Source of the DNA: an uncultured Thermoplasmata archaeon | Lineage (GTDB): Archaea; Thermoplasmatota; Thermoplasmata; Lutacidiplasmatales; UBA184 | Reading direction: 5' to 3' | DNA: 64,000 nt | Assembly: GCA_963715645.1 (NCBI GenBank) | Contig: OY970259.1 | Coordinates: forward strand, 71,841-135,840 | Shown here: piece by piece, positions 48,622 to 61,999 of the stretch | How the letters are laid out: each line of letters opens with the position of its first letter | How positions within the stretch are numbered: position 1 is the first letter of the stretch | Program-made: the position numbers and the translations under genes | Notes under the pieces: model-generated | Database searches by the model: none | The model's input: only the letters and a program-made list of their open reading frames with translations | What the model was told of the DNA's origin: nothing

Positions 48622-50205
48622 TTAGATGGTTGTGGGGTCCCGAGGCACGGCGCGGTCGAACACGCAGGCTCCGGCAAGCCAGGTCTCCCGAACAGCTGCC
48701 GCCCCTCGGCCGATAGCCGCCGCGAGGCTCTGGGCCTCCAGAATCACGAGGTCGGCCCGCGCGCCGGGCGCGAGCGAGCCGAGCTCGGGGTCCCCGAGCG
48801 CGCGACCGGCGTTCGCGGTGAAGAGGTCGAGCGCCTGGAACGGGGAGAGGGCCTCTTCCGCGATGGGATTCGCGGACCCCCCGCCCGGGGAGGTTCGGGA
48901 TACGGCCGCAGCCATCCCTCGCCAGGGATCGGGGGGGTCGTACGGGGCGTCGGTCGAGCCGACGAGATGGTGACCCCGGTCGGTCAGCGTGCGAAAGGGG
49001 TAGGCCCAACGGACCCGGGACGGTCCCAGCCGCTGGGCGAGCCACTCGTCACTCCAGACGAACCCGGGCTGGACCACCAGGATGGGGCGGACCCGGTCCA
49101 GGAGGGGAAAGATGGAGGGCGGAACGAGCGAGGCATGTTCGATCCGTGGGAACCTCGGAGCGTGGGCACCGAGCCGGTCGAGCGCCCGGAGCGTTTCGGT
49201 CAGACCGCGGTCCCCAATCGCGTGCACGGCCGCTTGGTGGCCCTCGTGGGCGCATCGCTCGAAGAGGTCGACGAGCTCGGGCTCCCGCGTCACCGGGATC
49301 CCCGAGTCGGTCGGAAGGTCGGTGTACGGTTCCTCGAGCCAGGCCGTTCGAGGACCGAACGCCCCGTCCACGAACGCCTTGACCCCGACCAGGGAGACGT
49401 AATCGTCGGGTCCGGGAGGCCCCCAGTCGGACGGGGCGAACTCCCGCCACCGGCCCGCCCGGGCGTAGCAGCGCACCCGAACCGACGGGGGTTCGGCTTC
49501 GAATTGGGCCCGTATCGCGCGTAGCTCCTCGGGGACCGTGCTCATCGACGCGACCGTCGTAACGCCCAGGGAGTTCGCGATCCGAACGGTCCTACCGATA
49601 GCGGCGGGTTCGGGAGGGTGGGCGCCCCCCGTGAGCTGCCGGACCGGGGTCAGCGCCGTCTCGTAGACCATCCCGTTGAGGGAGCCGTCCGATGCTCGTC
49701 CGAGGCGGCCTCCCGGTGGGTCCGCTGCCCGTTCGAGATACCCGGTGGCCTCGAGCGCCGCCCGGTTCAACACGGCCCCGTGGCCGCTCACGTGGTAGAG
49801 GACCGCCGGCCAATCCGACACGGCGCGCTCCAGGTCCCCAGCGGTGGGTTCCCGCCGTTCGGCGAACTGTTCCACCGACCAGCCGTCCCCGGTCACCGGG
49901 CCGTGCGGATGACCCGCAGCCCATGTCCCGAGCCGATCGACCAGCTCTCGGATCGAGCGGACGTCGCGCAGCGACAGACCCTCCCGGGCCCGCGTGAGCT
50001 CCGCGAGGTGCAGATGGGCGTCAATCAAGCCGGGGATGACCAGGCGGCCCTGGAGGTGGATGACCTCGACGCCCGTTGGGCTCGCTCGGAGGGCCTCCGC
50101 CGCGCTCCCGGCGACGACGACCCGGCCGCCCTCGAGGACCAGGGAGTCGACCGTCCGTGAGCCGGTGAGGATCCGACCCCCGGAGAAGCGGCAGCTCTCG
50201 GTCAT
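48622..50205 (-). CDS. Amidohydrolase-3 family metal-dependent hydrolase
   Basis: N-terminal beta-sandwich then PGLIDAHLHL (HxH), AVHAIGD, IEHASL, GSTDAP. 527 aa, intact. Confidence 0.75.
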   Translation of the reverse strand: MTESCRFSGGRILTGSRTVDSLVLEGGRVVVAGSAAEALRASPTGVEVIHLQGRLVIPGLIDAHLHLAELTRAREGLSLRDVRSIRELVDRLGTWAAGHPHGPVTGDGWSVEQFAERREPTAGDLERAVSDWPAVLYHVSGHGAVLNRAALEATGYLERAADPPGGRLGRASDGSLNGMVYETALTPVRQLTGGAHPPEPAAIGRTVRIANSLGVTTVASMSTVPEELRAIRAQFEAEPPSVRVRCYARAGRWREFAPSDWGPPGPDDYVSLVGVKAFVDGAFGPRTAWLEEPYTDLPTDSGIPVTREPELVDLFERCAHEGHQAAVHAIGDRGLTETLRALDRLGAHAPRFPRIEHASLVPPSIFPLLDRVRPILVVQPGFVWSDEWLAQRLGPSRVRWAYPFRTLTDRGHHLVGSTDAPYDPPDPWRGMAAAVSRTSPGGGSANPIAEEALSPFQALDLFTANAGRALGDPELGSLAPGARADLVILEAQSLAAAIGRGAAAVRETWLAGACVFDRAVPRDPTTI

Positions 50206-50268
50206 CGGTCCGACGGGAGTGGTACCGCCGGCGGCAGAAAGCGGGCGCGGACGGCGGTCCCGAGCGGC

Positions 50269-51732
50269 CTAGACGTCGAGGTACCGGTAGAACTCGTACG
50301 GGTGGGGCCGCAGGTTCAGCTCGAGCTGCTCCTCCCGCTTGAGCTCGATGTACGTGTCGAGGAGCGAATCGGCGAACGCAGGCTTCAGGAAGGCCCGGTC
50401 CGATTCGAGGCAGTCGAGGGCCTCGCCCAGCGACCCCGGAAGCTCCCGGATCCCGCGTTGCTTGCGCTGGGCGACCGTGAGCTTGTAGATGTTCTCGTCG
50501 ACCGGCGGAGGCGGTTCGATCTTGCGCTTGATGCCGTCGAGGCCCGCGAGGGCGAGAGCGGCTTCGGTCAGGTAGATGTTCGCGGCCGAATCGGGGGTGC
50601 GGTACTCGAGCCGCTTTGCGGCGGGTCGTCCCTTGTGGTAGAACGGGACCCGAACGCTCGCGGAGCGGTTCGCCTTGCTCCAGGCGATGAAGACCGGGGC
50701 TTCGTAGCCCGGCACGAGGCGCCGGTAGGAGTTCGTGATCGGGTTCGTGATGGCGCACAGGGAGCGCGAGTGCGCGAGCAGGCCTCCGACATAGTACCGA
50801 CAGACCTGGCTGACCTCGGCATACGGGTCGCTCTCGTCGTAGAAGGCGTTCTTTCCCTTCGACCAGATCGATTGGTTGGTGTGCATGCCGATCGCGTTGT
50901 CGCCGTAGATGGGTTTCGGCATGAGGCAGCCGACCTTCCCGTGGCGGTGGGCCACGTTCTTGATCACGTAGCGGATGTCCTGGATGTGGTCGGCCGTCGG
51001 GACGAGCTCGTCGAAGTGGAGGTTCAACTCGGCCTGCGCGCTGGTCGCCACCTCGTGGTGGTGGGCGTCCATGGTGATGTGGAAGTCGTCGGTGAGAATG
51101 TTCGCCATCTCGGCGCGCAGCCCGAGGGTCGAGTCGGTGGGAGGGCTCCGGTGGTACCCTTCCTTGAAGCGGACCGTCGAGCTGACCGGGCCGGTCTGCC
51201 ACGGAGCCTCGGATTGGTGGAGCAGGTAGCCGGCGCCGGCCCACGGGTCTCGAACCCCCTGGGCGGAGGGGATCAGCTCGATCGAATCGAAGATGAAGAA
51301 CTCGATCTCGGGGCCCCAGTAGGAGGTGTCATAGCCGGCGCTGGCGAGGACCTCCTCGGTCTTCCGAGCCACGGCCCGGGGGTCGTGGTCGTAGGGTTGG
51401 TACGAGGCGCCCAGCCGGACGTCGCAGATGAATCGGACCGTCCCACCGGCCTCGGGGTTCCACGGGATCGAGGCGAGGGTGCTCGGGTCCGGCACGAGCA
51501 ACATGTCGGACTCGAAGATCTCCCGGAACCCGCGCACGGAGGAACCGTCGAGCTTCGGGACGCCCGAGGCGAACGACTCCGCGTCGAGCGTCTCGAGGGG
51601 CACGTCGACCTGATTGAACCCCCCGAAGACATCCGTGTAGAACAGCTGCACCCATCGGACCTTCTCGGTCTTCAGCTTCGCGAGGGCCGCCTCTCCGTCG
51701 TTCTCCTTCGTCCGCTTCTTCACCGGTGACAT
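50269..51732 (-). CDS. glnA: Glutamine synthetase family ligase (type I; GlnA or gamma-glutamyl-amine synthetase)
   Basis: FTDVFGG-type beta-grasp (LFYTDVFGGF), GPEIEFFIFD, HHHEVATSAQAEL, KPIYGDNAIGMHTNQS, NSYRRLVPGYEAP, RSASVRVP. ATG 51732 preferred over TTG 51747. Confidence 0.8.
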   Translation of the reverse strand: MSPVKKRTKENDGEAALAKLKTEKVRWVQLFYTDVFGGFNQVDVPLETLDAESFASGVPKLDGSSVRGFREIFESDMLLVPDPSTLASIPWNPEAGGTVRFICDVRLGASYQPYDHDPRAVARKTEEVLASAGYDTSYWGPEIEFFIFDSIELIPSAQGVRDPWAGAGYLLHQSEAPWQTGPVSSTVRFKEGYHRSPPTDSTLGLRAEMANILTDDFHITMDAHHHEVATSAQAELNLHFDELVPTADHIQDIRYVIKNVAHRHGKVGCLMPKPIYGDNAIGMHTNQSIWSKGKNAFYDESDPYAEVSQVCRYYVGGLLAHSRSLCAITNPITNSYRRLVPGYEAPVFIAWSKANRSASVRVPFYHKGRPAAKRLEYRTPDSAANIYLTEAALALAGLDGIKRKIEPPPPVDENIYKLTVAQRKQRGIRELPGSLGEALDCLESDRAFLKPAFADSLLDTYIELKREEQLELNLRPHPYEFYRYLDV

Positions 51733-51770
51733 GGGTCCTCGCGTCAACCACCGGGTCCGGGTACATCAAC

Positions 51771-51785
51771 ATTCACCCGGTGAAT
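51771..51785. promoter_or_regulatory. Perfect 15-bp palindrome ATTCACC-C-GGTGAAT in the glnA/lrp divergent spacer
   Basis: Read directly. Lies 39-53 nt upstream of the glnA ATG and 62-76 nt upstream of the lrp ATG. An AT-rich stretch 51799-51838 follows. Confidence 0.4.
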
Positions 51786-51846
51786 CCGCGCGATTGTCCA
51801 ATTAACGACTCAATATCGTTATCTTCTATGGAATTAGACGCCTCTC

Positions 51847-52539
51847 ATGGGTCGTTCGTCCACTCTCGACGAGCTCGACCGAGCGCTCCTCACCGAGCTG
51901 AACATCGATGCCCGCCGTAGCCACCGAGAGCTGGCCCACCGATTGAAGGTCTCGCCGACGACCGTGAGCGCCCGGATCGGCCGGCTGGAGGCCCAAGGCG
52001 TCATCCGAGGCTACGTCCCGCTCCTGGACGAGGAGCTGCTCGGCTGGGACCTCTGGGCGGTGATCGGGATCTGGATCTCGAAAGGGCGGCTTCGGGAGGT
52101 CGAGGAGCGGCTGGCGCGAGACCCCCATGCCTACGCCATCTACGACGTGACGGGCGACACCGACGCGCTCCTGATCGGCCGCTTTCGGGATCGGCGCGAC
52201 CTCGACCGATTCGTGAAGCATGTCCTCCAGGACCCCTACGTAGAACGTTCGAACACCCAGGTCGTCCTGAACCGGGTCAAGGAAGACCGGCGGGTGCCGG
52301 TCCCCCTCCACCCGACCGAGCCGGGGCGGCGCGCCGGAGCCGTCGAGAGGTCGACGGGCCCTCCGAGCTCACGGGATCCCCCCGGTCGTCAGGAGACAAT
52401 ACGGGGCGGCGGGGGAAGGGGCTTCAGCTCGCCCCGAAGCAGCCCGAACAGGACCATGTCCATGCATCGACCCCGAACGCAGACCGCCTCACGTTCGCGT
52501 CCCTCCTCCACGAACCCGAGCTTCCGAAGTACCCGCTAG
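51847..52539 (+). CDS. Lrp/AsnC-family transcriptional regulator (domain ends near 52310; ORF tail probably spurious)
   Basis: LDELDRALLTELNIDARRSHRELAHRLKVSPTTVSARIGRLEAQGVIRGY (HTH_AsnC) plus a RAM-like domain ..AYAIYDVTGDTDALLIG..SNTQVVL. The last ~75 aa are antisense to the GNAT gene. Confidence 0.75.
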   Translation: MGRSSTLDELDRALLTELNIDARRSHRELAHRLKVSPTTVSARIGRLEAQGVIRGYVPLLDEELLGWDLWAVIGIWISKGRLREVEERLARDPHAYAIYDVTGDTDALLIGRFRDRRDLDRFVKHVLQDPYVERSNTQVVLNRVKEDRRVPVPLHPTEPGRRAGAVERSTGPPSSRDPPGRQETIRGGGGRGFSSPRSSPNRTMSMHRPRTQTASRSRPSSTNPSFRSTR

Positions 52540-53023
52540 TGAGCTCAGGTTCTGGTCCAGGGCCTGGGAGGCGACCCGGCGCATCCGCAGCGGTCCGAAC
52601 GCGGCCCGGCAGAGGAACCAGGACGCCTCGGTGGCGAATCCCTGGCCCCAGGTACCTCGGGTCGATCCAGTAGGAGAGACTTTCGACCTTTCGCCACGTC
52701 CAGTCCAATCCCCGGAGCCCGACCCGTCCGATGCACCCGCCGTCCCCGCGGAGGATGACGGAGAGGGAGAGGTGTTCCCCCTGGTGGTACTCCCGGAGCG
52801 TTCGTGTGACCATCCGCAGTGGGTTCTCCATCTCGGCCCGGGGGTGCAAAGGGGCCCCATGGGCCCGGGCGGTCCTGGGGTCCCGGAAGCTCCGCTTGAG
52901 GTCGGGGACGTCGCGTCGTGATGGGAGGCGAAGGAGGAGTCGCGGCGTCTCGAGAGGAAGGGCCAGTCGCGCGAGGTCGCCGACCCCCTTCACCATGGGC
53001 GGCAGAGGTTCCGCGCTCGACAT
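52389..53023 (-). CDS. GNAT-family N-acetyltransferase (RimJ/RimL-like), two frame breaks
   Basis: ETPRLLLRLPSRRDVPDL.., IGRVGLRGLDW, WIDPRYWGQGFATEA (after a break near 52655), RVLRKLGFVEEGRERE..DMVLFGLLRGE (after a break near 52545). Start at MSSAEP (53023) is tentative. Confidence 0.65.
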
Positions 53024-53368
53024 ACGGCTAACGGGTCCACGACGTCGGACCAAGGCGAGAGGCGCTTCGGAAGGCTCCTGAATCGCCGGGCCCGAGGGAA
53101 CCTGGATGACCCGGCGAGCCGGCGGGTCCTTCGAGCCCCTCCCCCAACAATCGGAGACGGACGAACTCCCCGTCGCGACGGCCGTCGGGCGGCTGTGCTC
53201 CAGGAGGAGTTCCTCGGCGAGCTCGAGGACTCCCTTCCCGAGCATGGCGGAACCGCCTCCGGCAGGGAACTCTGGTTCCCTCCCACGACCTCCCGATCCG
53301 GGTGGAGAGAGCGCGATCGGGGTAACGGCTATGAGCGCGGCCGCTCCATCGCTCCTTCCGAGGAGTCC

Positions 53369-54199
53369 ATGGACTGGGGGCTTGCGAACCGGATGCACCG
53401 GATGTTCACTCCTGCGACCCGCAACACGGTGATGCTGGCGGTCGACCACGGCTATTTCATGGGACCGACCCACCGTCTGGAGGACGCGGGGGCCACGATC
53501 GCGCCACTCCTACCGTACGCGGACGCCATCGCGTTGACCCGCGGCATCCTCCGACGTACGGTCCCTCCCACCTCCCAGACCCCGATCGTGCTCCGCGTAT
53601 CGGGCGGGGTCACGGTCCTGCAGGACGACCTCTCCCACGAAGCGGTCACGACCTCGATGGTCGAGGCGACGCGCCTGAACGTCTGCGCGGTCGCGCTCAG
53701 CGTGTTCGTCGGTGCCCCGCACGAACACGATTCGCTCGTGCACCTCGGCGAACTCGTGAACCAGGGTGAACAGGCCGGCATGCCCGTGATGGCGATCACC
53801 GCCGTCGGCAAGGAGCTCGAGAAACGGGACGCCCGGTATCTCGCGCTAGCCTGCCGGGTCTCCGCCGAGCTGGGGGCGCACATCGTCAAGACGTACTACT
53901 GCGACGGATTCTCGAAGGTGGTCGAGGGTTGCCCGGTTCCTATCGTGGTGGCGGGGGGCCCGAAGCTCGATAGCGACCGTGCCGCGCTGGAGCTCGCTCG
54001 TCACGCGATCGACCAGGGCGCGCACGGGATCGATATGGGCCGCAACATCTGGCAGTCCGAGCATCCGGTCCCGATGCTCAAGGCTCTTCGGGCGATCGTG
54101 CACGAGAAGGCAACGGTCGGCGAGGCGATGGACGTCCTTGCCGCCGAGAAGGGGCGGGGTGCGGGCTCGCGTTCCGCGCGTCGTCCCCAATCATCTTAA
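53369..54199 (+). CDS. DhnA-type class I aldolase family protein (FBP aldolase / ADH synthase / LsrF-like)
   Basis: MLAVDHGYFMGP, VALSVFVG, HIVKTYY (Schiff-base Lys region), IVVAGGPK, GIDMGRNIWQ. Start at MDWGL (53369). Confidence 0.7.
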   Translation: MDWGLANRMHRMFTPATRNTVMLAVDHGYFMGPTHRLEDAGATIAPLLPYADAIALTRGILRRTVPPTSQTPIVLRVSGGVTVLQDDLSHEAVTTSMVEATRLNVCAVALSVFVGAPHEHDSLVHLGELVNQGEQAGMPVMAITAVGKELEKRDARYLALACRVSAELGAHIVKTYYCDGFSKVVEGCPVPIVVAGGPKLDSDRAALELARHAIDQGAHGIDMGRNIWQSEHPVPMLKALRAIVHEKATVGEAMDVLAAEKGRGAGSRSARRPQSS

Positions 54200-55539: not shown

Positions 55540-56916
55540 TTGGAGAAAGTCAACGTCTGCATCAACAGCCAGACGCCCCTCCTTCAGTTCCTTTCCCCAC
55601 CCGACGGTTCGGCCGTGCCCACGTGGGGCACCACCGTCAACCTGGACGACCTCCACGAGGGGGTGGACTACCGGTTCTCCCCTGGAGGGGTGACCCGGAT
55701 GGTCTATCCGCTGGTTCGGAGACTTCTCGCCCAGGGAATCCTCGATCAGACCCATTGGGTCTCGCTGAACCCGGTAGGTCCACGGACGGTCAGGGCGGAC
55801 GGACTAACCCTGCACAACGTCGCGCTCGGGCCTCAGCGGATGGGCGGGTACGGGAAGACGAAGGAAGCGATCTGGTCGACCGTTCATGGCCTCGGCGTTC
55901 GCGAGTCGGTGGACGACCTCTTCTGGAGCGAGGAGTTCGTTGAGTACGCCTTCTACAACCGAACCACCTCTGAGCGGATCCGCAGGCTGGATGCCCAGGC
56001 CGACTTCGACCTGTTCTACATCCACGACTTCCAACAGATGCCGGTCGGGCAGATGCTCGACTCGCTGAAACCGAAGATTTTTCGCTGGCACATCCCGTTC
56101 GATGCGGCGCGGATTCCCGATAATTGGAGGGCGCGGTTCGTGGAGTACCTCGACAGCTACGACGTGGTCGTGGTGAGCTGCGAACGGTACCGCGCGGGCC
56201 TCAAGAGGCTCGGCTATCGAGGGAAGTCGCTCCGCCTGTACCCGTACCTCGACCCTCGAGAGTACCGCCGACCCGCGAAGCGGGAGGTGGCGACGACCTG
56301 CGCCCGCTGGGGAGTGCGCCCGAACGAGCGTCGTCGTGCTGGTGGTCGCCCGGATGGACCCGGCGAAAGCGCACGACCGGGCAATCCAGGCGGTCGCTCG
56401 CCTCGCTCCGAGGTACCCGCGCCTGCGTCTCGTGCTCATCGGGAACGGGAGCTTCTCCGGCGCCACGGGCGGCCTCGGGCTCTCCAAGGCCGCCCAGTGG
56501 CGGGCCCACCTCGAGGCGGAGGCCGTGCGACTCGGGGTCCGGGAGCGCGTGATCTTCCCGGCCACGTTCCTCAGGATGCCCTGGACTGTTTCTACGAGCG
56601 CTCGCTCTTCACCCTGCTGCCGTCGGTCAACGAGGGATTCGGCCTCGTGGTCGTCGAGAGCTGGCTCCACCGTCGGCCCGCCCTCGTCACCGAACGCGCG
56701 GGGATCGCCGAACTCATCGAGGACGGGAGAAACGCTATCCTCTTCGACCCGGACGACATCCCGACCCTGGCCCGGAAGATGCGCAGGCTACTCGACGACC
56801 GCGGCGAGCTGGCGGGGCGGCTCGCGCGCAATGCGACCGTCACCGCCCGCGAATGCTCGATCGACCTCGCGGCCCGAGCGGAGGCGAAGTTGATGGCGGA
56901 GGTCCTCGAGGCGTAG
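55540..56916 (+). CDS. GT4-family glycosyltransferase, TreT/trehalose-synthase-like, two frame breaks
   Basis: TTG start preceded by GGGAGGGA. FYIHDFQQMPV..IFRWHIPFD (compare HD..W.CHID of TreT-type enzymes), VARMDPAKA, LLPSVNEGFGLVVVESW (E-x7-E region). Breaks near 56328 and 56560. Confidence 0.65.
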   Translation: MEKVNVCINSQTPLLQFLSPPDGSAVPTWGTTVNLDDLHEGVDYRFSPGGVTRMVYPLVRRLLAQGILDQTHWVSLNPVGPRTVRADGLTLHNVALGPQRMGGYGKTKEAIWSTVHGLGVRESVDDLFWSEEFVEYAFYNRTTSERIRRLDAQADFDLFYIHDFQQMPVGQMLDSLKPKIFRWHIPFDAARIPDNWRARFVEYLDSYDVVVVSCERYRAGLKRLGYRGKSLRLYPYLDPREYRRPAKREVATTCARWGVRPNERRRAGGRPDGPGESARPGNPGGRSPRSEVPAPASRAHRERELLRRHGRPRALQGRPVAGPPRGGGRATRGPGARDLPGHVPQDALDCFYERSLFTLLPSVNEGFGLVVVESWLHRRPALVTERAGIAELIEDGRNAILFDPDDIPTLARKMRRLLDDRGELAGRLARNATVTARECSIDLAARAEAKLMAEVLEA

Positions 56917-56917
56917 C

Positions 56918-57784
56918 ATGTTCGGGTTACCGGATTGGACGACCCCGTATCTCTTCGCCGCGATCATCCTTGCCCTGACCTGGCTGGTCGCATGGGTCGC
57001 GAGCCTCGCGCTTCGCGGACTGATGAGTCAGAGCCCCCCGCAAGTGGCGGCAGGGGCCCGGCGCCTGGGCGTGATCGTGGTCTGGCTCGTGGGGATCCTC
57101 CTTGCCGTCCAGGAGGTCGGGGTCAGCATCGAGATCCTCCTCCTCGTAGTGGGTCTCTTTGCGATCACCGCCATGATCGCTCTGCGGATCCCGCTCGAGA
57201 ACGTCGGCGCCAAGTACTTCTCGGACGTCTACAGCCCGTTCAAGGTGGGCGACTCGATCGAGGTGGGGGGGTACTCCGGCAAGGTCATCGAGATCAATGC
57301 GATGACCACCATCCTCCTCTCCGAGGACGACCGGCTGGTGGCCCTTCCGAACTCCCTGCTGCTCAAGGAGACCCTCATCAACGCCTCGCCGCACGCCTGG
57401 AAGGAGCTCACGATCCCGATCTCCCTACCGGCGAACGTCGACATCGCTCCGCTGGAGAGCGAGATTCTGAAGAGCCTGGCCAAGCTGCGGGCTCGCCTGG
57501 ACAAACGCTTTCCACCGGTCCTCGCGACGAAGGCGCGGACCGCGGAGTCGACCGACCTCGTCCTGACGGTGATGATCCGCCGGCCTGAGGAGCGGGACGC
57601 GCTGCTCCTCGAGGTGAACAAGCGGGTCCACGACGCGAATCCAGGGGACCCGAGTTCGAGGGAGCGCGACGCCGACCGTTCCCCCAGAGGGTGCCGCGAA
57701 ACACTGAGCGCACCGTTCGCTTTCAGAATCGGGCGTGACGACGCGACCGGGGCCGCTTCGGGGGTTGGACGGACCTCACGGTAG
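56918..57784 (+). CDS. mscS: Small-conductance mechanosensitive channel (MscS family)
   Basis: Three N-terminal TM helices, then PFKVGDSIEVGGYSGKVIEINAMTTILLSEDDRLVALPNS (MscS beta-domain signature). ATG lies 1 nt after the GT4 stop. Confidence 0.75.
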   Translation: MFGLPDWTTPYLFAAIILALTWLVAWVASLALRGLMSQSPPQVAAGARRLGVIVVWLVGILLAVQEVGVSIEILLLVVGLFAITAMIALRIPLENVGAKYFSDVYSPFKVGDSIEVGGYSGKVIEINAMTTILLSEDDRLVALPNSLLLKETLINASPHAWKELTIPISLPANVDIAPLESEILKSLAKLRARLDKRFPPVLATKARTAESTDLVLTVMIRRPEERDALLLEVNKRVHDANPGDPSSRERDADRSPRGCRETLSAPFAFRIGRDDATGAASGVGRTSR

Positions 57785-58143
57785 GGCCCGCGCCGGAAGG
57801 GAAGTGGTCCGCGACCGCCCCTTCGGGAGCCCCTAGGGTCGTGGGCGCGGGGCCAGTTCAACGGGGGTGAATGATCCCGCCGGGGTGGCCCCACCGAGAG
57901 AAGACTCGGAGGGGGCTTCGGCCTCCGGGGCGGCGTGCGGAACGGGGTCGACGACGCAGGCGGTTCAGCCGGTCGCGCGGTCCGGGCAGGAGCCGGCAGG
58001 AGGGACGTTCGACAATCGTGGGAGTTTCGTGGGGTCATTTCGTTCCCCGCTTCGGCAATCGCCGGGGGCTCGTCCTATCGTTGGACAAACCTTCATCCCC
58101 CCTCCCGCGGAACGAGAATCGGTGATGCCGAAAGGGACGAACC

Positions 58144-58389
58144 ATGGCAGAAATGTGTTCAAGCTGCGGATGCTACTTCGCCTCTCCCGCCGAGCTCCTC
58201 ACGCACGCGCGAAAGTCGCACGCACCGGGCGACACGACATCGAGCCTGGCCATGAATCCCGCGAGCCGAACGCCCGGGGTGACCTGCGCGATGTGCGGGC
58301 GTACGTTCGCAACCCCGGAGCGTCTTGCGGCGCATGCCTTGCACCCGCATCCCACTCCTCGGCCGTTCGGGCGGCCCACGAGGTCGTAA
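58144..58389 (+). CDS. Small protein with two classical C2H2 zinc fingers
   Basis: 81 aa. CSSCGCYFASPAELLTHARKSH and CAMCGRTFATPERLAAHALHPH both fit C-x2-C-x3-F-x5-L-x2-H-x4-H. Confidence 0.65.
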   Translation: MAEMCSSCGCYFASPAELLTHARKSHAPGDTTSSLAMNPASRTPGVTCAMCGRTFATPERLAAHALHPHPTPRPFGRPTRS

Positions 58390-58487
58390 TGTACGGTCTC
58401 TCGTCCGTCGTCAGCGTGCGATGCCGCCGGGAGGCGTGAGCCCCGGCTCGCGAGTCGGGAAGAGCGGAGAGACCGAGGGAACGACCT

Positions 58488-58715
58488 ATGGTGGATCTCT
58501 GCCCAATATGTCGGAGGTCGTTCGACTCCACGTCGGCGGTCCTGTCGCACATGGCCAAACTACATCCGACCCAGAGCTCGGAGGCGGGTCGAGGCGATTC
58601 GTTGGTGTCGGGGCCTGTCGGCCTCGCGTGCCCCGATTGTGGCCAGAGGTTTTCGGCCGAGGTGGAACTCGCGCTCCACAACGCCCGGCTTCACCCGGCC
58701 CTGCGGCGATTGTGA
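58488..58715 (+). CDS. Small protein with two classical C2H2 zinc fingers (paralogue of 58144..58389)
   Basis: 75 aa. CPICRRSFDSTSAVLSHMAKLH and CPDCGQRFSAEVELALHNARLH fit C-x2-C-x3-F-x5-[LV]-x2-H-x4-H. GAGGGA lies upstream of the ATG. Confidence 0.65.
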   Translation: MVDLCPICRRSFDSTSAVLSHMAKLHPTQSSEAGRGDSLVSGPVGLACPDCGQRFSAEVELALHNARLHPALRRL

Positions 58716-59013
58716 CGTGGGAGCCGATACCCCCGGCGGTCCCCTCACAGCCCTGCGCCGGCCCCTCGGAAGGGTGTCCGCGGCCCCGGCGAGGTCGCAA
58801 CGAGCGCGGGCTCCCTCGCTCCGTTCGTTGTCCGCTCAGCCCTGCTCCGCGCGAATCCGCGCGGGCGGTTAGACCCTCCATCGAGAGCCAGCAGGAGACC
58901 CCCCGGGTCTTGGCCTCCATCGGCAACGTATTTGGCACCGTCTTCGCTGGGGGGCCGTGACCCTGCAACGCGGCGCTCCCGTGGCGGGATGAGGTGACCC
59001 GCCGATTCATCGG

Positions 59014-60667
59014 ATGACCCCTCACCCCAACTCCGACCGGTCCCCGTTAGGTGTCCGCGAGGCGCAAGCTCCGCCAATCCGCGTCACGGGGCCCCCTTCA
59101 CCCCATGACGATGAAGTGCTGACGCCCGCGGCGCTCGAGTTCGTCGGGGAACTTCACGTTCGGTTCGAGTCCCGCCGGCAAGAGCTTCTGCGACAGCGCG
59201 GCACCTTTCGCGCGATCCTCGAGGCGGGAGGTCTCCCCGACTTTCCCCGCGAGACGCAGCCCATCCGGACATCGGCCTGGAGGGTCGCCGCAGCGCCGGC
59301 CGACCTCGCCGACCGCCGCGTGGAGATCACCGGACCCACCGACCGGAAGATGGTCATCAATGCCCTCAACTCGGGCGCTCGGGTCTACATGGCCGACTTC
59401 GAAGATGCGCACGCCCCGACCTGGACCGGAACCGTGGTCGGTCAGGTCAACCTCCAGGACGCCGTCCGCCGGCGGATCACGTACACCTCACCGGACGGGC
59501 ACGAGTATCGGCTTCGGGAACCGGTGTCGACCCTGATGGTCCGCCCACGAGGCTGGCATTTGGAGGAGCGCCACGTCACGGTCAGGGGCCGACCGGTCTC
59601 GGCGAGCCTCTTCGACTTTGCTCTGTTCTTCTTCCACAACGCGGTCGAGCTGGTGCGGCGGGGAACGGCCCCGTACTTCTACCTGCCCAAGTTGGAGCAC
59701 TATCTCGAGGCCCGGCTCTGGAACGACGTGTTCGTCGCCGCCCAGGAGAGGATCGGGATCCCGCGGGGAACGATCCGCGCGACCGTGCTCATCGAGACCC
59801 TCCCCGCCGCGTTCCAGATGGAGGAGATCCTCTACGAACTGCGGGAGCATTCCGCGGGGCTGAACTGCGGGCGCTGGGATTACCTGTTCAGCTTCATCAA
59901 GCAGTTTCGGAACGACCGGCGCGTCCGTTTTCCCGACCGGGACCGTCTGGCGATGAGCACGCCCTTCCTCACCGCGTACTCGCACCTGCTCATCCAGACC
60001 TGCCACCGTCGGGGGGCGCACGCGATGGGGGGGATGGCGGCCCAGATCCCCATCAAGGACGACCCGTCCGAGAACGCAGCGGCCATCGCCAAGGTGGTCG
60101 CCGACAAGGAGCGCGAGGTCCGCGCCGGTCACGACGGGACCTGGGTCGCGCACCCCGGCCTCGTTCCCGTGGCGATGGAGGTCTTCGACCGGGAGATGCC
60201 GAAGCCCAACCAGATCGAGGCTCCGCTGTCGAGCGAACTCATCGGGCCCCGCGACCTCCTGACCGTACCTCCCGGCCCCATCACGGCAGGCGGGGTCCAC
60301 CGGAACATCCGCGTGGCCTTCCTCTACCTGGAGTCATGGCTCCAGGGGATCGGGTGCGTTCCGATCGACCACCTCATGGAGGACGCCGCCACGGCCGAGA
60401 TCGCCCGCTCCGAGCTGTGGCATTGGGTCCACCATTCGGCCGCCCTCGACGATGGTCGGACGGTCGATGCCACCCTCTTCCGCGAGCTCCTCTCCTCCGA
60501 GATGCGGCTCCTGCGGGACCGTCGGGGACCTCGGGACCCGAGCCCGTCGAATCGACCGTGCGGCTCGGATCCTCGAGGAGGTCGTGCTGGGGCCGCAGTT
60601 CGAGGAGTTTATCACGAGGCGCGCGTACACTGAGTTGGGAGACGTTCCCGTCGGGAGCGGGGGATGA
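59014..60667 (+). CDS. aceB: Malate synthase (A-type), one frame break near the 3' end
   Basis: [66 protein letters not shown]. The tail ..[23 protein letters not shown].. lies in ORF 60452..60667 after a break near 60524. Confidence 0.85.
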
Positions 60668-61999
60668 CGAGCGCGGCGAGTTGGGAGCCCAAGGACCCAG
60701 AGCGGTGGAAGGGGATCGAACGTCCCTACCGTCCCGACGATGTCGAACGGCTCCGCGGCTCCGTTCGGGTGGCCAACACCCTCGCGGACCTCGGAGCCCG
60801 ACGCTTGTGGCGCCTGCTCCAGAGCGAGCCGTTCGTGGCGTCCCTCGGCGCGATGACCGGCACCCAGGCGGTCCAGATGGTCGCGGGCGGGCTCCCGGCG
60901 ATCTACGCGAGCGGCTGGCAAGTGGCGGCCGACGCGAACACCGCCTCCGAGACCTACCCGGACCAGAGCCTGTATCCCGCCGACAGCATGCCCACCCTCG
61001 TCCGCCGCATCAACAACGCGTTCCGCCGAGAGGACGAAAAGCAGCACGCGGCGGGGCGGGGCGAGGTCCATTGGTACACGCCGATCCTCGCCGACGCCGA
61101 GGCGGGTTTCGGCGGGACCCTCAACGTCTTCGAACTCACGCGCTCGCTGATCGAGCGCCGGCGCGGCGGGGCTGCATCTCGAGGACCAGCTCGCTTCGGT
61201 CAAGAAGTGCGGCCACATGGGCGGAAAGGTCCTCGTCCCCGCCCGCGAGTTCAACCAAAAGCTGTGGGCGGCGCGTCTGGCCGCCGATATCCTCGACGTC
61301 CCGACCGTCCTGCTCGCCCGGACCGACGCGCTCAGCGCGAAGCTGCTCACGAGCGATATCGACCCCCGGGACGCCCCGTTCCTCACGGGCAAGCGGACCC
61401 CCGAGGGGTTCTTCGAGATCACCGGCGGGCTCGATATGGCGATCGCGCGGGGACTGGCCTACGCCCCGTACGCCGACCTCCTCTGGTTCGAGACGGCCGG
61501 ACCCGACCTGGAGGAGGCGGAACGGTTCGCCCGCGAGGTCCACCGCGACTTCCCCGGAAAGTTCCTCGCCTACAACTGTTCGCCGTCCTTCAACTGGCGT
61601 AAGAAGCTGAAGCCGGAAGTGATCGCCGACTTCCAGACCACCATCGCCGAGATGGGCTACCGTTTCCAGTTCGTGACGCTCGCCGGTTTCCACGCGGTGA
61701 ATCTTTCGATGTTCAAGCTGGCGCGAGGGTACGCTCGGACGGGCATGGCGGCCTACACCGACCTGCAGGAGGAGGAGTTCCGGGCCGAGGAGGAAGGATA
61801 CTCCGCGGTCAAGCACCAGTCGTTCGTCGGGGCCGGCTATTTCGACGACGTGTCGCAGGTGCTCTCGGGAGGACTGACGACCACCCTCGCCATGGAAGGC
61901 TCCACCGAGAAGGAGCAGTTCGTCGACCGCGCCGGCTCGAAGAGCCGTGGGGCCGGGCCGACTCCCTCTCGTTCCGCCGCATCCTCCAAGTCCGCCTAG
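60664..61999 (+). CDS. aceA: Isocitrate lyase, one frame break
   Basis: ATG overlaps the aceB stop (ATGA). [21 protein letters not shown]. After removing c 61156 it reads [31 protein letters not shown] (KKCGH signature), NCSPSFNW. The second half is ORF 61217..61999. Confidence 0.85.

Follow-up and report, generated by a model that had tools for sequence, protein, structure and literature searches.

What do two adjacent archaeal genes do that each encode a pair of classical C2H2 zinc fingers, the largest transcription-factor domain class in eukaryotes? The genes lie in a 64,000-nucleotide (nt) stretch, here called the window, of contig OY970259.1 from an uncultured Thermoplasmata archaeon (Lutacidiplasmatales, UBA184; assembly GCA_963715645.1). 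There the open reading frames ORF1 (81 aa; 58144..58389, + strand) and ORF2 (75 aa; 58488..58715, + strand) precede aceB and aceA, which encode the glyoxylate-shunt enzymes malate synthase and isocitrate lyase. An initial annotation, made from the DNA sequence alone, had proposed both products as regulators of an unusual type with the neighboring operon as a candidate target. Our analysis moderately favors small zinc-dependent nucleic-acid-binding regulators, most plausibly DNA-binding transcription factors, which are not dedicated to aceB-aceA.

Two genes for classical zinc-finger mini-proteins

Both reading frames were found at the coordinates given in the initial annotation, with four finger sequences identical to those it quoted, and a regular-expression scan returned the claimed pattern C-x2-C-x3-F-x5-[L/V]-x2-H-x4-H for all of them: ORF1 finger 1 (CSSCGCYFASPAELLTHARKSH; 58156..58221, + strand) and finger 2 (CAMCGRTFATPERLAAHALHPH; 58285..58350, + strand), as well as ORF2 finger 1 (CPICRRSFDSTSAVLSHMAKLH; 58500..58565, + strand) and finger 2 (CPDCGQRFSAEVELALHNARLH; 58629..58694, + strand). 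The fingers are joined in pairs as described, but the linker measures 21 residues from the last His of finger 1 to the first Cys of finger 2 and not about 25; in ORF1 it spans 58222..58284 (+ strand) and carries the motif S-L-x-x-N-P-A-S-x-T-P-G. An end-to-end alignment of the two proteins (29% identity, pairwise E = 6e-9) bears out that they are tandem paralogs. The pattern C-x2-C-x12-H-x3-5-H occurs four times in a six-frame scan of the window, always inside ORF1 or ORF2, compared with a chance expectation of 0.01 (mean of 100 dinucleotide-frequency-matched simulations).

Both proteins exceed the Pfam gathering cutoffs of PF00096 (zf-C2H2; 33.0 bits for ORF1 and 33.8 bits for ORF2, cutoff 25.2) and PF13894 (32.2 and 32.7 bits, cutoff 27). 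The residues of the hydrophobic core, F12, L18, F55, and L61, are invariant or nearly so, with Val replacing Leu in ORF2 finger 1. The G+C content at third codon positions (GC3) is 0.76 in ORF1 and in ORF2, and the overall G+C content of the window is about 69%. Both ORFs are genuine genes that code for zinc-finger mini-proteins. A single frameshifted four-finger gene was considered as well and rejected, as the ORF1 orthologs stop at the same 81 aa and a related contig (L016, see below) has the identical two-gene layout.

AlphaFold2 (AF2) models computed with the family alignment predict two independent beta-beta-alpha units in each protein, which, together with the Pfam scores, supports their assignment to the classical type. 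The strands lie at residues 3–4, 11–12, 46–47, and 54–55 and the helices at 15–25 and 58–65 (or 58–68), the shorter version of the second helix being that of ORF1. The predicted local distance difference test score (pLDDT) is 72–86 in the fingers and 71 overall for ORF1; the linker is disordered and of low confidence, with values below 50 at ORF1 residues 32–38. The predicted template modeling score (pTM) is low for both models (0.32–0.34) because the two finger units are not packed against each other. Foldseek and a PDB profile search retrieved classical DNA-bound fingers (SALL4, ZBTB24, Zif268, CTCF, ZNF568) and, lower down, the Sulfolobus virus protein B-129; the Foldseek E-values of about 4e-3 are weak, which is not surprising for a model whose two units are only loosely connected.

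A narrow family in Thermoplasmata

A single-sequence search with ORF1 identified three orthologs, a profile search 23 protein clusters, almost all of exactly 81 aa and with 48–69% identity. Orthologs were also present in three GTDB species representatives and on six metagenome contigs, with identities of up to 73%. Wherever a source is named, it is “Thermoplasmata archaeon”. The family comprises about 25 sequence clusters in all and occurs only in one clade of uncultured, GC-rich Thermoplasmata from soil and peat, where it is normally single-copy. No description of it was found in the literature consulted.

In an alignment of 21 family sequences, the eight zinc ligands, both Phe residues, and L61 are invariant (C5, C8, F12, H21, and H26 in finger 1; C48, C51, F55, L61, H64, and H69 in finger 2), and the Pfam domain was matched in 21 of 21 members. 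Conservation of the ligands among orthologs, a check proposed in the initial annotation, thus holds, with a few one-finger variants and the protein of locus L022 as exceptions. N38, P39, S41, and G45 of the linker are likewise invariant or nearly so among the orthologs; the motif is not conserved in ORF2. The ratio of non-synonymous to synonymous substitution rates (dN/dS) between pairs of ORF1 orthologs is 0.12–0.23, at synonymous sites near saturation, and their in-frame GC3 is 0.73–0.80. Given the ligand invariance, the dN/dS values, and GC3, ORF1 is a real gene under purifying selection.

The one-finger variants P0021 (17 contigs; identical to the gene at L009 8001-8225) and P0022 keep finger 1 and the conserved upstream element Box A (see below), while finger 2 is replaced by a tail conserved between the two (PRRR..P.L..LP.VG..IRRA). 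No Cys/His motif was found in any other frame of the P0021, P0022, and L009 variants. Since these variants lack finger 2 and the L022 zinc-finger protein lacks the last His, the second finger can be lost.

A family-profile HMMER search against 1.84 billion representatives yielded 50,017 matches and was swamped by eukaryotic poly-finger proteins: 149 of the 150 best matches were 581–4842 aa long, with P0002 as the sole short relative, which makes this search uninformative on distant prokaryotic relatives.

A conserved upstream cassette

Orthologs of ORF1 share a cassette of about 140 bp with three common blocks, in upstream regions that are otherwise unalignable. Box A (TTCGACAATCGTGG; 58008..58021, + strand), an invariant block in an alignment of nine loci, is located 123–136 nt before the ORF1 ATG. 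In 23 of 25 loci its exact form (TTCGACAATNGNGG) precedes the zinc-finger gene, and in the window it is the sole match with up to two mismatches. The near-palindromic Box B (CGGCAATCGCCG; 58053..58064, + strand) was recognized in the locus alignments and appears in L024 as its exact reverse complement (CGGCGATTGCCG). Box C (TCGTTGGACAAACCTTCATC; TCGTTGGACAAAnnTaCATCA; 58078..58097, + strand) is A-rich, lies 47–66 nt before the ATG, and has one match in the window compared with 0.04 expected. A GGAGG-type ribosome-binding site follows just before the ATG in most orthologs. All three boxes are conserved across distances at which synonymous sites are saturated.

As the sole A-rich stretch at the right distance, Box C is a candidate promoter core, that is, a transcription factor B recognition element (BRE) with TATA box, and Boxes A and B are putative regulator-binding sites. 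The three boxes are no general promoter motif of this genome, for Boxes A and C are unique in the 64 kb and Box B-like 12-mers occur at chance rate. A structured RNA or riboswitch in the upstream region was rejected, too: RNAalifold predicted five pairs with no covariation and -1.6 kcal/mol, and against Rfam nothing reached the gathering thresholds, with only noise at E <= 5.

A second cassette consisting of Box A, a Box B-like element, and Box C was detected at L010 560-665 (- strand) and equally in L001, L008, and L011. In this sub-lineage (L001/L008-L011) it precedes the gene for a 132-aa four-helix membrane protein, which suggests a small regulon shared between the membrane-protein and zinc-finger genes. 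In the window this protein has no homolog besides a gene remnant at 57809-57960, described below.

Across the loci, the residue at helix position +3 of finger 2 varies together with the 3′ end of Box A. Glu (L001, L008, L021, L024) goes with GGGG, and Arg, Gln, His, or Ala (11 loci) with GTGG. We rejected this covariation as a sign of recognition: it is perfect in the 15 loci that retain finger 2, yet confounded by phylogeny, and it is contradicted by the GTGG-type Box A before the L010 membrane-protein gene.

One further sequence in the window, TTGGACAATCGCGC at 51788-51801 (- strand), resembles Boxes A and C. It lies in the only strongly A/T-rich stretch of the divergent intergenic region between the glutamine synthetase and Lrp/AsnC genes. 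The motif TTSGACAAW occurs three times in the window (0.38 expected), the one copy outside the boxes being that upstream of glutamine synthetase. TTGGACAATCGCGC may act as a promoter-core-like element and not as a specific operator.

Which ligand do the fingers bind?

Each protein is little more than two classical C2H2 fingers on a flexible 21-residue linker. We propose that each finger would bind one Zn2+ and that the proteins would act on nucleic acid as small regulators, most plausibly as DNA-binding transcription factors. They would be expressed from a tightly regulated, possibly autoregulated promoter. ORF1 travels with its own cassette, in which Boxes A and B would serve as regulator sites and Box C as promoter core, followed by the ribosome-binding site. 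ORF2, a tandem duplicate that has lost the linker motif and kept all eight ligands while evolving about 2.5 times faster, would join this scheme.

Three points speak for DNA as the ligand. Fingers that bind DNA give the best matches in both profile and structure searches. ORF1 is positively charged overall, its C-terminal tail is basic, and a basic pair is conserved between the two His of finger 1. AFV1p06, the only characterized archaeal protein of a comparable kind, binds DNA (PMC3541406). Several observations weigh against this proposal. The residues at helix positions -1, +2, +3, and +6 are mostly small or acidic (S/A/E/T in ORF1 finger 1, T/E/R/A in finger 2), where Arg, Lys, Asn, Gln, His, or Asp would be usual for base contacts; a typical contact residue is found only at +3 of finger 2, which is R or E throughout the family. 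The linker is long and lacks the TGEKP of DNA-wrapping arrays, and the His spacing is H-x4-H, not H-x3-H. Near-threshold matches of finger 1 to zf-met and zf-C2H2_jaz would suit an RNA ligand equally. Finger 2 was lost in one related sub-lineage (P0021, with its 17 contigs), so that two fingers are not a strict requirement. Boxes A and B, being palindromic or nearly so, could equally suit a different, dimeric helix-turn-helix regulator. Finally, the proximity to a trehalose gene cluster (see below) may be inherited synteny only.

The most serious alternative, in our view an unlikely one, is that the fingers are of the U1/matrin or JAZ type and bind RNA, either a structured RNA or within ribosome or ribonucleoprotein (RNP) biology. 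Long flexible linkers between fingers occur in C2H2 proteins that bind double-stranded RNA (dsRNA), and those of ORF1 and ORF2 recall them; moreover, U1-like fingers end in a basic GKKH similar to the H-x-[RK]-K-x-H of finger 1, and few Arg, Lys, Asn, or Gln residues occupy the base-contact positions. ORF1 finger 1 scored 20.5 bits with zf-met (cutoff 21.2) and 20.2 bits with zf-C2H2_jaz (cutoff 22.6), and at E <= 0.01 these models matched 9 and 14 of the 21 family members, with best E-values of 3e-6 and 3.7e-5, respectively. However, C2H2 sub-family models cross-hit freely, so that sub-threshold scores discriminate poorly, and the highest scores come from PF00096 and PF13894, two generic models of the DNA type. 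In one sub-lineage the zinc-finger gene lies directly upstream of rpl7ae-rps28e-rpl24e, which would fit a role at the ribosome. This linkage is limited to a single sub-clade, is interrupted by genes for an MFS transporter and a glyoxalase in L008-L011, and is absent from the sub-clade of the window, where no L7Ae gene was found; we rejected it as a general context of the family.

A more elaborate version of the DNA-binding proposal makes ORF1 a cellular, non-viral archaeal C2H2 transcription factor that binds Boxes A and B in its own promoter, and in one sub-lineage also before the gene of the four-helix membrane protein, and that controls an osmotic or trehalose regulon comprising TreT, MscS, and GH15, with ORF2 neofunctionalized towards an altered specificity. 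Taken as a whole, this scenario, too, appears unlikely to us.

Genes for TreT, MscS, a HAD phosphatase, and a GH15 glycosidase recur 0–5 kb upstream of the zinc-finger gene and form its only recurrent neighborhood. This trehalose/osmotic-stress cluster was seen in at least four gene arrangements, including a divergent TreT and zinc-finger gene pair in L006 and L017, whereas L012/L013 and L024 lack it. The recurrence could reflect a functional link or simply synteny inherited among relatives.

We consider it rather improbable that the two products bind no nucleic acid and instead are micro-proteins for protein interaction or for zinc sensing or buffering, their fingers packed as a pair like ZF1-ZF2 of Zap1. 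They do consist of little besides two fingers; the canonical recognition positions are small or acidic, and the NPAS-TPG motif of the linker is reminiscent of short linear motifs for interaction. Pleiotropic phenotypes have been reported for haloarchaeal zinc-finger micro-proteins (PMC6562870). The Zap1_zf1 model (PF21816) matches 18 of the 21 members at E <= 0.01, but these are sub-threshold matches and typical cross-hits (13.7 bits for ORF1 vs a cutoff of 27.2). The AF2 models leave the two fingers unpacked, with the low pTM and the disordered linker noted above, and judging from the sequence, the net positive charge and the basic tail of ORF1 would favor a polyanion as ligand.

No dedicated link to aceB-aceA

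Along the window, the genes follow one another as amidohydrolase (-), glutamine synthetase (-), Lrp/AsnC (+), DeoC (+), tRNA-Leu, HAD (+), TreT (+), MscS (+), ORF1, ORF2, aceB, aceA, and AAA_33 kinase (-). The position claimed in the initial annotation, head-to-tail, upstream of, and co-oriented with aceB-aceA, is thus correct, with a gap of 298 nt between ORF2 and aceB. The functional inference drawn from it, that both proteins are dedicated transcriptional regulators of this glyoxylate-shunt pair, is very unlikely. Besides the adjacency, it could draw on the lack of a clear + strand terminator in the ORF2-aceB gap, according to a scan for intrinsic terminators and sigma-70 promoters that is uninformative for an archaeon, and on the lineage-specific nature of ORF2, which would allow a local recruitment in principle.

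Against it stands that tblastn with the window proteins and the gene tables revealed no malate synthase or isocitrate lyase gene within the fetched flanks of about 20 independent related loci, neither near the ORF1 orthologs nor near the ortholog of ORF2. The gene downstream of the ORF1 ortholog varies among these loci: besides by rpl7ae-rps28e-rpl24e, the ortholog is followed by an MFS transporter and then a glyoxalase gene, by DUF6114, by convergent genes, by a 121-aa hypothetical protein and then ferredoxin and molybdopterin oxidoreductase genes, or by a 59-aa ORF and then HSP20. The ORF2 ortholog on L016 precedes a convergent tRNA-Arg gene and unrelated genes on the minus strand. In addition, the region upstream of aceB bears no copy of Boxes A–C and no similarity to any related locus, and both aceB and aceA are frameshifted as assembled. 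The adjacency appears to be a rearrangement specific to the window, and from the comparison of loci we do not regard the zinc-finger pair as dedicated regulators of aceB-aceA.

The frameshift in the malate synthase gene is located at about 60540, with the last ~35 residues in the frame of 60452-60667. The Pfam match of isocitrate lyase is split over two frames at about 61170-61220 (60664-61602 and 61217-61999), and TreT (55540-56916) has a garbled middle whose true sequence lies in another frame. Either an indel-prone assembly or pseudogenization accounts for these three frameshifts. Unlike these neighbors, ORF1 and ORF2 appear intact when compared with their orthologs.

ORF2, a fast-evolving duplicate

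With ORF2 as query, no match was obtained in an index of 5.8 billion proteins or in the GTDB genomes, and its exact sequence is unrecorded. A tblastn search of all fetched loci, however, identified one ortholog at L016:682-909 (75 aa, 45% identity, E = 2e-15). Among the contigs, only L016, from a soil metagenome of JGI, was found to have an ORF2 ortholog; it also bears P0008, an ortholog of ORF1 with 69% identity, in tandem with which the second gene is arranged. Its product shares with ORF2 the N terminus MVD.CP.C, the C terminus LRRL, and the eight ligands. The public gene call on L016 comprises only a 42-aa fragment (781-909) of the 75-aa protein, a case of small-protein under-annotation, which is why the protein-database searches missed it.

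Between ORF2 and its L016 ortholog, dN/dS is 0.37 and dN is 0.55, about 2.5 times the dN of 0.22 of the ORF1 pair from the same two genomes. In a neighbor-joining tree the two sequences of the ORF2 type group together on a long branch, outside all ORF1 orthologs, and a second zinc-finger copy is missing from the sister lineages L017, L018, and L023. The simplest reading of these data would be a tandem duplication in an ancestor shared by the window and L016 lineages, followed by accelerated yet constrained evolution; an older duplication that was lost repeatedly is a less simple alternative. The 98-nt spacer between ORF1 and ORF2 (58390..58487, + strand) contains no match to Box A or Box B and no copy of the upstream boxes at large. 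Compared with the 94-nt spacer in L016, conservation is limited to a stretch rich in purines and to GACCTATGGT around the start codon. ORF1 and ORF2 are probably co-transcribed.

That ORF2 is a decaying duplicate without a function of its own, so that ORF1 alone would matter, might seem to follow from its lack of database matches, the lost linker motif, its raised dN and dN/dS, and its absence from the sister lineages, but is highly improbable, given that the frame is intact at 75 aa in two lineages across saturated synonymous divergence (dS about 1.5), that the eight ligands, both Phe residues, and the termini are retained, that dN/dS is well below 1, and that in-frame GC3 is 0.76–0.82 in the ORF2-type genes.

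Comparison with known zinc-finger systems

The initial annotation's statement that classical fingers are rare and poorly characterized in prokaryotes agrees with the literature: 278 archaeal C2H2 examples were counted in UniProt in 2013 (PMC3541406), 59 PF00096 proteins in a set of prokaryotic genomes (PMC7017128), and C2H2 fingers have been called “poorly characterized in archaea” (bioRxiv 10.1101/2025.07.27.667033). Its description of an unusual type is weakened by the fact that NCBI and JGI, where they name members of the ORF1 family, already label them “C2H2-type zinc finger protein”. A eukaryote-style finger in a prokaryote is thus a valid observation, yet one known in kind and made by annotation pipelines before. 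What this analysis adds is that a narrow family in Thermoplasmata is now defined, together with the ortholog of ORF2 and its faster evolution, the one-finger variants, and the promoter cassette.

ORF1 and ORF2 have the ligand pattern, hydrophobic core, profile scores, and predicted fold of the classical C2H2 family (PF00096/PF13894). With eukaryotic members such as TFIIIA, Zif268, and Sp1/KLF they share the C-x2-C-x12-H-x3-5-H pattern, the Phe/Leu core, and the predicted beta-beta-alpha unit, and their best PDB matches in sequence and structure are DNA-bound poly-finger proteins. They differ in having two fingers in about 80 aa, H-x4-H throughout, small or acidic residues at the base-contact positions, and an archaeal host. 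The arrays of Zif268 and the KRAB-ZNF proteins, with a TGEKP-like linker of about seven residues, are unlike them, too, the 21 residues between H26 and C48 containing no TGEKP.

In cellular archaea, classical C2H2 fingers are scarce and hardly characterized; the one biochemically studied archaeal example cited here, AFV1p06, comes from a crenarchaeal virus and binds zinc and DNA (PMC3541406). AFV1p06 and SSV B-129 (PDB 2LVH, 2WBT; PF22034) resemble our proteins as small proteins from an archaeal context with classical-type fingers; PF22034 reached 25.5 bits with finger 1 of ORF2 only (cutoff 27), and B-129 appeared in the PDB profile search. However, the single finger of AFV1p06 uses Glu as its fourth ligand and is accompanied by a structural extension, compared with the two fingers of ORF1 and ORF2, and both viral proteins are virus-borne, whereas the ORF1 family is chromosomal and in conserved cellular synteny. 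A viral origin was rejected after two scans of IMG/VR gave one spurious match without an ORF; matches of the zinc-finger proteins in PHROGs had E >= 2e-4 only.

Among haloarchaeal micro-proteins, Brz positively regulates the adjacent bop gene, and deletions of several others lead to stress-related phenotypes (PMC6562870, PMC10716476); the phenotypes concern stress adaptation, biofilm formation, and swarming, by mechanisms that are not yet known (PMC6562870). Brz, HVO_0758, and HVO_2753 (C(P)XCG) are comparable as very small archaeal proteins with one or two zinc-binding modules. These are C4/C3H zinc ribbons or knuckles, in contrast to the Cys2His2 type of ORF1 and ORF2, and there is no homology; the NCBIfam model of HVO_0758 (NF041912) scored 12 bits vs a cutoff of 70.

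Bacterial Ros/MucR proteins have a single finger, with about nine residues from the Cys pair to the first His, inside a larger globular domain. As DNA-binding regulators with C2H2 ligands in prokaryotes they come close to the role proposed for ORF1 and ORF2, which differ by the x12 spacing and two fingers; the Ros/MucR model gave no Pfam match to either at E <= 1. The U1-like or dsRNA-binding C2H2 class (zf-met PF12874, zf-C2H2_jaz PF12171) has a His spacing of x5. It shares the long linkers, the basic residues between the His pair, and the near-threshold scores of finger 1, but both scores stay below the cutoff for the window proteins, the His spacing is x4, and finger 2 is of the generic type.

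What could make this family valuable is that it is chromosomal, under purifying selection, and minimal with its two fingers, and that the conserved promoter cassette supplies concrete candidate DNA targets for binding. It could show whether archaeal fingers read DNA as eukaryotic ones do, and if the reading as an autoregulated transcription factor is true, it would provide a tractable minimal model of classical fingers before their eukaryotic expansion. The immediate value is modest because the domain annotation was already made by public pipelines and the link to the glyoxylate shunt is not supported.

Rearrangements around the zinc-finger genes

Next to the zinc-finger promoter, a start-less remnant of a membrane-protein gene was identified at 57809-57960 (+ strand), consisting of the upstream region and about 25 codons. 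Its source is a gene for a four-helix protein of 131/132 aa, which stands intact beside MscS in L014 and L017 and is divergent from the zinc-finger gene in L012. In the remnant the ATG is replaced, and the homology ends 48 nt before Box A. The remnant marks the joint of a deletion or rearrangement, immediately before the zinc-finger promoter. A repeat scan of 57700-59100 revealed short repeats at chance level only.

The window genes for TreT and MscS are 80–86% identical to genes of metagenome-assembled genomes (MAGs) of uncultured “Thermoplasmata archaeon” sources, from which it follows that the host is an archaeon. Further upstream, the backbone of amidohydrolase, glutamine synthetase, Lrp/AsnC, and DeoC genes is syntenic between the window (48622-54199) and L012 (1-4450). 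The segment from DeoC to the zinc-finger gene differs between them: it is occupied by the trehalose cluster in the window, and in L012 by genes for a Rieske protein, a protein with a guanylate cyclase domain (PF00211), and the membrane protein.

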